Positions 37,534-38,109 of a stretch of 64,000 nt of DNA are shown piece by piece. Numbering within the stretch: position 1 is the stretch's first letter; the number at the start of each line of letters is the position of its first letter. The position numbers were made by a program, and so were the translations under genes. Origin of the DNA: a virus; IMG/VR virus record IMGVR_UViG_3300048918_000107; one strand, given 5' to 3'. The notes beneath the pieces were generated by a model that saw only the letters and a program-made list of their open reading frames with translations, did not search any database and was not told the DNA's origin.

Positions 37534-37616
37534 GGAGGGTGAGTATCAGGTGATACAGGTGGATTGCTAATCCGCTACGGTACACATCCCGTGAAGTTCG
37601 AATCTTCCTCCCTCCG
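37534..37616 (+). tRNA. tRNA-Ser (anticodon GCU), class II, no encoded CCA
   Basis: Manual cloverleaf. Anticodon stem GTGGA/TCCGC, loop TTGCTAA, long variable arm ACGG/CCGT, T loop TTCGAAT. Confidence 0.75.
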
Positions 37617-37682
37617 CAAAGCCTTCCCTCCCGGATGTGATGCCAGGTAACGCTGGTGCGAGTGTCGAGTGGGGAGGCCTTT

Positions 37683-37765
37683 GGAAGATACCGCTAGATG
37701 GTCGGCAACCGGCGTCGAATACCGGGGCTGGGTAACTCCAGGGGGTTCGATTCCTCTATCTTCCG
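37683..37765 (+). tRNA. tRNA-Ser (anticodon CGA), class II, no encoded CCA
   Basis: Acceptor GGAAGAT/ATCTTCC. Anticodon loop GTCGAAT. Variable stem CTGG/CCAG. T loop TTCGATT. Confidence 0.75.
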
Positions 37766-37769
37766 CGTT

Positions 37770-37853
37770 GGAGAGTGAACTGGGTAGGCACCCAGGTCCG
37801 CTTGGAAAGCGGCACGTGTCGCAAGGCATGGGTTTCGAGTACCTCTCTCTCCG
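37770..37853 (+). tRNA. tRNA-Ser (anticodon GGA), class II, no encoded CCA
   Basis: Anticodon stem CCGC/GCGG with loop TTGGAAA. Long variable arm. T loop TTCGAGT. Confidence 0.7.
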
Positions 37854-37876
37854 CGCTACAACTGAATAGTGACCAT

Positions 37877-37953
37877 GCTCCACTATGCAAACAGGAAAAG
37901 CAGCCATCCTCAGAAGGTGGTGTGTCTCGGTTCGACCCCGAGGTGGAGTACCA
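37877..37953 (+). tRNA. tRNA with Leu anticodon CAG on a class I (5-nt variable loop) scaffold, CCA encoded
   Basis: 74-nt cloverleaf. Anticodon stem CCATC/GGTGG, loop CTCAGAA, T arm CTCGG-TTCGACC-CCGAG, discriminator A. Confidence 0.75.
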
Positions 37954-37954
37954 A

Positions 37955-38028
37955 GTCCCAGTAGGCAAACAGGCAAAGCCGCCATCTTGAGGGGGTGGTG
38001 CATGCGGGTTCAACTCCCGCTTGGGACA
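37955..38028 (+). tRNA. tRNA with Leu anticodon GAG on a class I scaffold, no encoded CCA
   Basis: Anticodon stem CCATC/GGTGG with loop TTGAGGG. T arm GCGGG-TTCAACT-CCCGC. Starts 1 nt after the previous CCA. Confidence 0.75.
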
Positions 38029-38033
38029 CGCAA

Positions 38034-38109
38034 GCCGCAGTAGGCCATCAGGCGAGCCGCCGTACTCAAAATGCGGTGTTTGCGGGTTCGATCCCCGCCT
38101 GCGGTACCA
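38034..38109 (+). tRNA. tRNA with Leu anticodon CAA on a class I scaffold, CCA encoded
   Basis: Anticodon stem CCGTA/TGCGG with loop CTCAAAA. T arm GCGGG-TTCGATC-CCCGC. Discriminator A. Confidence 0.75.

Follow-up and report, generated by a model that had tools for sequence, protein, structure and literature searches.

A serine/leucine tRNA island in a cluster-C-like mycobacteriophage genome is probably one compartment of a larger phage tRNA complement

Gene content of the tRNA island

The viral DNA analysed here, IMG/VR record IMGVR_UViG_3300048918_000107, is a stretch of 64,000 nucleotides (nt; referred to as the window) that carries a tRNA island at positions 37534-38109. The island encodes three serine tRNAs with the anticodons GCU, CGA and GGA and three leucine tRNAs with the anticodons CAG, GAG and CAA (Table 1). 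The coordinates and anticodons of the six genes, originally predicted from the sequence alone, were confirmed by ARAGORN and by comparative tests, and direct reading of the 3' ends showed that CCA is encoded in only two of the six, Leu-CAG and Leu-CAA, as had also been predicted. Two other parts of the original prediction hold only within limits. The restriction to serine and leucine is true for the island itself, but a tRNA with a CUA anticodon is located 1.4 kb further downstream. Similarly, the assignment to class II has its limits, since neither family conforms to the standard form: the Ser genes possess a long variable arm together with an 8/4 architecture, and the Leu genes lack this arm, are only 74-77 nt in length and are not class II in structure.

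Table 1. Positions of the island tRNA genes, of surrounding features and of related tRNA genes in other phages. Anticodon loops are compared with those of the host proxy Mycolicibacterium senegalense ATCC 35796; positions in other phages are given with their handle (L).
Feature	Position	Strand	Remarks	Anticodon loop, phage / host proxy
tRNA-Ser(GCU)	37534..37617	+	predicted 8/4 fold, long variable arm, G73, no encoded CCA; default ARAGORN	UUGCUAA / CUGCUAA
Hairpin-forming spacer, 65 nt	37618..37682	+	not present in the relatives examined	
tRNA-Ser(CGA)	37683..37765	+	predicted 8/4 fold, long variable arm, G73, C31-A39 mismatch, no CCA	GUCGAAU / CUCGAAA
tRNA-Ser(GGA)	37770..37853	+	predicted 8/4 fold, 6-bp D stem with 4-nt loop, long variable arm, G73, no CCA	UUGGAAA / CUGGAAC
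tRNA-Leu(CAG), 77 nt	37877..37953	+	no long variable arm, A73, encoded CCA; ARAGORN	CUCAGAA / UUCAGGU
tRNA-Leu(GAG), 75 nt	37955..38029	+	no long variable arm, A73, no CCA; ARAGORN	UUGAGGG / UUGAGGU
tRNA-Leu(CAA), 76 nt	38034..38109	+	no long variable arm, A73, encoded CCA; ARAGORN	
CCA-adding enzyme / poly(A) polymerase family gene	20171..21484	+	Pfam	
NrdH-like glutaredoxin gene	35054-35353		Pfam	
696-amino acid (aa) gene	35356..37446	+	phrog_3138; no Pfam match; 'ParB-like' or hypothetical counterpart located before the island in all relatives	
Sigma-70-like promoter match, TTGGCA-18-TACAGT with TG	37429..37458	+	just upstream of the island; weak	
HNH endonuclease gene	38132..38536	+	phrog_4234, E=1.1e-31; inserted between Leu-CAA and PTH2	
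PTH2-type peptidyl-tRNA hydrolase gene	38874..39266	+	Pfam PF01981, E=2.1e-9	
CUA-anticodon tRNA	39514..39585	+	A73, CCA; ARAGORN; nearest tRNA beyond the Ser/Leu block	
Unannotated Ser-CGA/GGA genes	Cali L013:707-884; Bigswole L010:1406-1586			
(8/4) Ser-type genes in other phages	BL57 L011:1408-1684; X1 L012:890-1068, 1502-1585; PegLeg L142:393-475, 645-730		PegLeg: cluster M	
Long-arm Leu genes	Phabba L005:5070-5153, 5274-5358; Myrna L004:5874-5956; Bigswole L010:1588-1673			
Variable-slot gene of the main arrays	Phabba L008:3391-3463; Myrna L007:3711-3782; ScoobyDoobyDoo L006:3271-3339			

Identification of the weakly detected Ser genes

Standard sequence-based finders underestimate the tRNA content of the island. 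At gathering thresholds, Rfam reported no more than Leu-GAG and Leu-CAA in the whole window (RF00005, 49 and 50.6 bits), i.e., two of the six island tRNAs, and Leu-CAG had no Rfam match even at E<=1; Rfam at gathering thresholds is not usable as a test for these genes. Ser-GCU was matched by the Rfam tRNA-Sec model at 45.4 bits. The gap of 259 nt between Ser-GCU and Leu-CAG contains the genes for Ser-CGA, which was detected by ARAGORN at a relaxed threshold only and gave a weak match to the tRNA-Sec model (27.8 bits, E=0.016), and for Ser-GGA, which was called neither by ARAGORN (default or relaxed) nor by Rfam. The weak members were therefore tested by comparison across phages.

For Ser-GGA, five phage sequences were aligned on an imposed cloverleaf with an acceptor stem of 8 bp and a T stem of 4 bp. 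In this alignment 92.9% of the cells were paired, compared with about 45% in slid controls, and compensatory changes occurred in 15 of the 28 pairs; none of 500 shuffles came up to these figures. Each phage has its own sequence in the 6-bp D stem, and yet pairing of this stem is complete in three phages and interrupted by a single mismatch in the other two, with five of its six pairs covarying. The fold of Ser-GGA had a z-score of -3.0. Ser-CGA was aligned with the corresponding genes of Myrna, Alice, Phabba and the cluster-M phage PegLeg, resulting in 97% paired cells and compensatory changes in 7 of 20 pairs. The Ser-GGA alignment was turned into a covariance model (R1), which scored Ser-GGA at 97.4 bits, and a search of the window with the Ser covariance model returned exactly three matches, which were the three Ser genes of the island. 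The comparative evidence indicates that Ser-CGA and Ser-GGA are real, conserved genes.

Homologues of Ser-GGA were found in the mycobacteriophages Tonenili, Cali and Bigswole and, more distantly related, in Caulobacter phage BL57 and Xanthomonas phage X1, and all those examined lacked annotation in their records. The anticodon arm, CCGCTTGGAAAGCG, was identical in all five Ser-GGA genes, which belong to phages of hosts from different phyla.

Architecture of the island tRNAs

Sequence and pairing data indicate that all three island Ser tRNAs adopt an 8/4 fold. Position 8 pairs with position 65 in 19/19 Ser genes of the family, and 49-65 is unpaired in 17 of them. This pattern, 8-65 paired and 49-65 not, occurs in all seven Ser-GCU orthologues, and the minimum-energy fold of Ser-GCU is the 8/4 cloverleaf. 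In addition, the 8-65 pair covaries, being GC or AU in the Ser-GGA alignment and AU, UA or GC in that of Ser-CGA. Of the D arms, those of Ser-GCU (5 bp) and Ser-GGA (6 bp), but not that of Ser-CGA, could be assigned with confidence, both as a long stem closed by 4 nt, and all three Ser genes combine a long variable arm with G73, the identity set of seryl-tRNA synthetase (SerRS). The match of the tRNA-Sec model to Ser-GCU is explained by the 8/4 fold together with D stems of 5-6 bp and 4-nt loops.

The 8/4 fold has been described by Mukai et al. (2017; PMC5389517), including (8/4) tRNA-Ser in phages of alpha-proteobacteria, and phage tRNA clusters are an already known source of the (8/4) group of allo-tRNAs. 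The island genes resemble this group in the 8-bp acceptor and 4-bp T stem (12 bp in total), the long variable arm, G73 and the serine anticodons, and those with the anticodons gct and gga also in the long D stem with its 4-nt loop. However, Ser-GCU and Ser-GGA of the island differ in carrying a U7-U66 mismatch inside the 8-bp stem, and mycobacteria and their phages are absent from the main text of PMC5389517. The 8/4 Ser tRNAs of mycobacteriophages are a new occurrence of a known fold, for which charging with serine is predicted. Ser-type tRNAs of the (8/4) kind also occur in other large phages, with three adjacent genes in BL57, three in X1 and two in PegLeg. These score 42-92 bits with the covariance model and are mostly unannotated, Ser-gct of PegLeg being the only one with an annotation.

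The three Leu tRNAs have variable loops of 4-5 nt and D stems of 3 bp. They share A73 with class II tRNA-Leu in three of three cases and lack the long variable arm of this class (total tRNA length ~83-88 nt), which is present in the Leu tRNAs of the host proxy (84-88 nt). Long-arm tRNA-Leu genes of 83-86 nt were observed at orthologous slots in Phabba (cag and caa), Myrna (caa) and Bigswole (cag), and the anticodon arms of the long Leu-CAA of Myrna and the short Leu-CAA of the island are nearly identical. Hence, deletion or regain of the long arm appears to have taken place within this lineage.

Conservation of the island in cluster-C phages

Megablast searches with three parts of the window almost exclusively matched cluster-C mycobacteriophages, the right-hand part additionally matching 9 Gordonia, 4 Rhodococcus and 1 Streptomyces phage records. 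The aligned patches were 77-87% identical, mostly 78-83%, and collinear along the genomes, and an exact 45-mer of the island had no match in viral, metagenome or genome contigs. The local gene order, i.e., an NrdH-like glutaredoxin, the 696-aa gene, the tRNA island, PTH2, the CUA tRNA, a protein of more than 1000 aa and the portal, is the same in the Myrnavirus members Myrna, Phabba and ScoobyDoobyDoo, and in Alice (Bixzunavirus) the island follows a ParB-like gene. Because of the megablast patches and the matching gene order, the window is assigned to the Ceeclamvirinae, and these sequence data indicate that it is the left ~64 kb of a new, fairly divergent, Myrnavirus-like cluster-C mycobacteriophage. 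Mycobacterium smegmatis was the isolation host of the relatives examined.

A core consisting of Ser-gct and Leu-cag, -gag and -caa was present in all eight relatives scanned with ARAGORN, among them Alice, ScoobyDoobyDoo, Myrna, Phabba, Tonenili and Bigswole, and Cali is annotated alike. Full-length Ser-GCU orthologues occur in 206 phage records, all of them of mycobacteriophages, at ~28-36 kb wherever a position was listed. Ser-CGA of the type found here was identified in 139 phage records, and a second type of Ser-CGA, followed by an at least partial Ser-GGA, in 92; a complete Ser-GGA is present in Cali. Judged from these sequences, the arrangement of three Ser and three Leu genes also occurs in other phages. 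In the Ser copies of the Tonenili/Cali type, the T loops are non-canonical (AGCGTGC, ATCGTGC), and these copies may function less well.

Compared with the islands of Bixzunavirus (Bxz1, Alice, Rizal, Cali) and Myrnavirus (Myrna, Phabba, ScoobyDoobyDoo), the core anticodons and the position between a ParB-like gene and the portal region are the same, the tRNA orthologues are 78-93% identical, and counterparts of Ser-cga and Ser-gga exist in many members. As such, the island is a standard and widely annotated feature of cluster C and, in the form in which it was first noted, an ordinary finding. The present island differs in its divergence (~78-83% identity over alignable parts), in the canonical T loops of all three Ser genes, in the CCA on two Leu genes, which is encoded in none of the relatives examined, and in having a unique spacer as well as an HNH gene after Leu-CAA. 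The spacer, whose counterparts in relatives measure 3-14 nt, folds as a stable hairpin (-27 kcal/mol, z=-2.45), and its 5' end repeats a CTTCC..CCCTCC motif from the 3' end of the Ser tRNA. Leu-CAG and Leu-GAG have the same anticodon stem (CCATC/GGTGG), unlike the corresponding pair of Alice, which is not alike; this hints at local gene conversion or a recent duplication.

In most of the listed cluster-C records, Ser-CGA and Ser-GGA carry no annotation. According to van den Berg et al. (2023; PMC10264068), cluster-C1 phages avoid Ser-cga and Ser-gga, as VapC cuts inside these anticodons; the study used ARAGORN and tRNAscan-SE and lists no Ser-CGA or Ser-GGA genes. As the genes are present in most cluster-C records and were overlooked by the tRNA finders, our comparisons indicate that the published avoidance is in part a detection artefact and that the claim needs revision.

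A second tRNA array in the relatives

To place the island in a whole-genome context, four complete relatives were examined (Alice, Myrna, Phabba and ScoobyDoobyDoo). All four possess, in addition to the island, about 30 further tRNAs, with the main array located ~59-61 kb downstream of the island. Matches to RF00005 across the whole genome numbered 23 in Alice and 30-31 each in the other three; the main arrays lie at ~90-97 kb, a further pair of genes is found at ~121-124 kb, and a transfer-messenger RNA (tmRNA) was seen in Alice and Phabba. In Alice, the annotation places tRNAs at 90.6-96.7 kb and at 124.4 kb, and the array comprises Trp, Tyr, Met (two), Cys, Glu, His, Ala, Phe, Val (two), Gly, Asp, Ile, Arg (four), Gln (two), Lys and Asn, a CUA suppressor and the tmRNA. 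One Alice gene annotated as Pro carries a Thr anticodon according to its annotation and was read as Pro-TGG by ARAGORN. Taken together, these further tRNAs of the relatives account for most if not all of the remaining amino acids.

The main arrays of the relatives yielded no genuine tRNA for Ser or Leu, either in the annotation, by default or relaxed ARAGORN, or with the Ser covariance model, which returned nothing above 27 bits. Two candidates were rejected. Myrna_143 (L007:935-1002), annotated as tRNA-Leu, bears a CCA anticodon, can be aligned with the ScoobyDoobyDoo gene for tRNA-Trp and is probably misannotated. A 73-nt 'Ser(tga)' of Phabba has a class-I body, and its slot holds suppressor-like elements in other members. 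One slot of the main array is occupied by a class-I tRNA-like gene with a constant body and a variable anticodon loop (CTTGATC in Phabba, CTTTAA of only 6 nt in Myrna and a CUA reading in ScoobyDoobyDoo), which is annotated as Ser, suppressor or undetermined.

By homology, the arrays of the relatives strongly suggest that the phage studied here has a second array as well, which would be situated at about 97 kb in window coordinates and thus beyond the end of the window. The original prediction had taken the restriction to two families as a sign of specific tRNA replacement; the broad arrays of the relatives indicate that it is a matter of genome position and not of repertoire. Tyr belongs to class II in bacteria, and Arg is encoded by six codons. 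The tRNAs for both are found in the main array, so that the island is defined neither by 'class II' nor by 'six codons'. The large arrays of virulent phages such as T4, T5 and cluster M are similar in providing a nearly complete decoder set along with a CCA-adding enzyme, PTH2 and homing HNH genes, whereas the cluster-C set is split and holds all Ser and Leu genes in one compartment.

Codon usage

Codon usage was determined for 63 plus-strand open reading frames, which were selected for their length and their G+C at third positions. With wobble pairing of G34 to U included, the island tRNAs decode 95.8% of the Leu and 92.7% of the Ser codons, and among the genes located right of the island, which include the portal gene and further structural genes, coverage reached 97% for both; only CTA, TTA and TCA are without an island tRNA. 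The codon table of the host (PMC10264068, Supplementary file 1b) has the same rank order of codons as the phage. According to the same source, and also in the proxy genome, the host possesses the same six anticodons plus UAA, UAG and UGA. The original statement that the island covers the G/C-ending codons is true, but in a GC-rich genome these are nearly all Ser and Leu codons. Codon usage therefore explains the choice of G/C-ending codons.

In classical codon compensation, phage tRNAs would supplement codons used more by the phage than by its host. The G+C content of the phage (~61%) is below the host figures in PMC10264068, and TTG, which is served by Leu-CAA, makes up 12% as compared to 5.7% in the host. 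However, the tRNAs match codons that are the commonest in phage and host alike (CTG, CTC, AGC, TCG and TCC), while CTA and TCA, which are among the codons most enriched in the phage relative to the host, have no phage tRNA, and no link between codon frequency and tRNA carriage was seen in cluster C1 (PMC10264068). As the over-used A-ending codons are exactly those left unserved, the pattern speaks against compensation of host-rare codons, which we regard as very improbable, and rather fits a role in bulk supply or host independence.

Anticodon loops and host defence

The premise that mycobacterial VapC tRNases target Ser and Leu isoacceptors is documented: VapC11, VapC15 and VapC32 cleave Leu-CAG, VapC11 (which cuts Leu tRNA at G37/U38) also Leu-GAG and Gln-CUG, and VapC28 and VapC30 cleave Ser-UGA and Ser-CGA, while other VapCs cleave Cys and Trp tRNAs (PMC5175351). 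In the same group of phages, altered anticodon loops have been proposed to render the whole tRNA set of cluster C1 resistant to such nucleases (van den Berg et al., 2023; PMC10264068), so that the idea of defence evasion by cluster-C tRNAs is already in print. The loops of the island tRNAs were compared with those of M. senegalense ATCC 35796, a host proxy found by its 16S signature, with Leu-CAA and Leu-UAA outside the comparison (Table 1). Phage loops differed from those of the proxy, which may itself differ from the true host, at positions 32, 37 and 38. Leu-CAG has A37-A38 in place of G37-U38 and hence no VapC11 cut site, and Leu-GAG has G38 in place of U38. G37 of the host Leu-CAG is presumably a site of m1G37 modification; the phage tRNA has A37. 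The loops thus differ at or next to VapC sites, and they are compatible with the published hypothesis of nuclease insensitivity, which concerns the complete tRNA set and does not single out Ser and Leu.

A counter-defence specific to these two families, in which the island would provide nuclease-insensitive copies of the VapC targets Leu-CAG/GAG and Ser-CGA/UGA, would agree with the documented targets, the loop changes in Leu-CAG and Leu-GAG, the differences of the Ser loops at positions 32 and 38, the remodelled tRNA bodies (8/4 Ser and short-arm Leu) and the general idea published for cluster C1. Nevertheless, we consider it unlikely. The ~30 other tRNAs of the relatives mean that nothing singles out Ser and Leu, Ser-CGA retains GA within the anticodon, where VapC28 cuts, codon usage alone predicts the six anticodons, and the reading draws on sequence comparison with a proxy host. 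Known targets of VapC and MazF include Trp, Cys, Gln and Lys tRNAs, and the phage copies of these are encoded by the main array (for Gln, additionally by the pair at ~124 kb) and not by the island. The original prediction had named a broad tRNA set elsewhere in the genome and a codon usage that explains the set as arguments against replacement of depleted host tRNAs; both were essentially found, the first by homology only. As the restriction reflects gene position within a nearly complete set, the exclusive Ser/Leu content is no specific evidence for defence evasion.

Gene neighbourhood of the island

The 696-aa gene upstream of the island has nucleotide and protein similarity to gp83 of Mangeria, gp83 of Bxz1 and Tonenili, and corresponds in position to the 'ParB-like' gp75 of Alice and to gp78 of Myrna. 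Downstream, the spot between island and PTH2 that is taken by the HNH gene holds no gene in Myrna, Phabba or ScoobyDoobyDoo; the HNH genes of the relatives sit within the main tRNA arrays instead. PTH2 occupies the same position in ScoobyDoobyDoo and Phabba, where it is annotated as peptidyl-tRNA hydrolase, and in Myrna as the unnamed gp84; a gene for ThyX (Pfam) lies downstream in the window. CUA tRNAs fill the slot of the present CUA tRNA in ScoobyDoobyDoo, Myrna and Phabba. A derivation of this tRNA from the Leu genes is unsupported, as the identity is only 58-68%.

The product of the gene at 20171-21484 is assigned to the CCA-adding enzyme family by a PolyA_pol head domain (E=3.7e-30), a PolyA_pol_RNAbd domain (E=5.6e-14) and a tRNA_NucTran2_2 match (E=6.4e-6) of 26.7 bits, just under its cut-off of 27 bits; both CCA-adding and poly(A) activity would be compatible with these domains. 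The small number of encoded CCA ends had been taken to fit such a phage enzyme, which is factually right but a weak argument, as several tRNA genes of the host proxy likewise have no encoded CCA.

The position of the island at the boundary between many short genes to the left and the portal and structural genes to the right, directly upstream of the large protein and the portal, raises the question of a timing module. Island, PTH2 and CUA tRNA would then be expressed apart from the main array to boost the translation of structural genes, in line with the promoter-like site just upstream and with the peak of Ser/Leu coverage to the right of the island. The promoter match is, however, at chance level, as the scan gave one site compared with 0.8 expected from shuffles and is not significant by itself, a terminator was looked for and none was found, and why Ser and Leu would be needed at that time stays unexplained. 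Such a module is therefore rather improbable.

Discussion

We consider it likely that the island represents the Ser/Leu compartment of the large tRNA complement of a cluster-C (Ceeclamvirinae) phage. As such, it would supply decoders for every appreciably used Ser and Leu codon, leaving out the three A-ending ones, and together with the expected second array of ~30 tRNAs it would free phage translation to a large extent from the host tRNA pool, irrespective of what depletes this pool. The island tRNAs would be expressed and charged with serine and leucine, respectively. SerRS and leucyl-tRNA synthetase (LeuRS) do not read the anticodon. Thus, duplication in place with a change of anticodon would be easy and remodelling of the tRNA body would be allowed, and the families may have expanded from a founder gene that was duplicated in place and given a new anticodon.

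Several points weigh against this explanation. Firstly, the second array is deduced from relatives with only ~78-83% nucleotide identity over the aligned patches. Secondly, the identities among the Ser and among the Leu tRNAs (61-70%) are no higher than those to host tRNAs, so that expansion in place is not demonstrated. A pairwise matrix, with 55-81% identity for all pairs except orthologues and host-host pairs, decides nothing between duplication in place and capture from a host, and the identical anticodon stem of Leu-CAG and Leu-GAG is the sole hint of expansion in place. Thirdly, supply alone does not account for the complete partition, conserved in two genera, between Ser and Leu and the remaining 18 families, for which there could be some other functional reason. 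The chance that two displaced families would be Ser and Leu is about 1 in 190, calculated post hoc and with tandem paralogues counted as one family.

One such reason might be that the Ser and Leu families were rebuilt on foreign scaffolds (8/4 and short-arm) that evade host enzymes acting on class II tRNAs, which could be nucleases or modification and processing enzymes, and were kept away from the main array under separate control. Rebuilding would be possible because recognition by SerRS and LeuRS involves neither the anticodon nor much of the tRNA body; as an explanation of the island we hold this to be quite unlikely.

With the island as a probable Ser/Leu compartment, the separation of these two families from the main array in two genera is a real regularity that is as yet unexplained. 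The rare 8/4 fold also occurs unannotated in Caulobacter, Xanthomonas and cluster-M phages. For the field of phage tRNAs, the value of the island may lie in its hidden Ser-CGA and Ser-GGA genes, in the 8/4 fold predicted for all of its Ser tRNAs and in the conserved separation of Ser and Leu.

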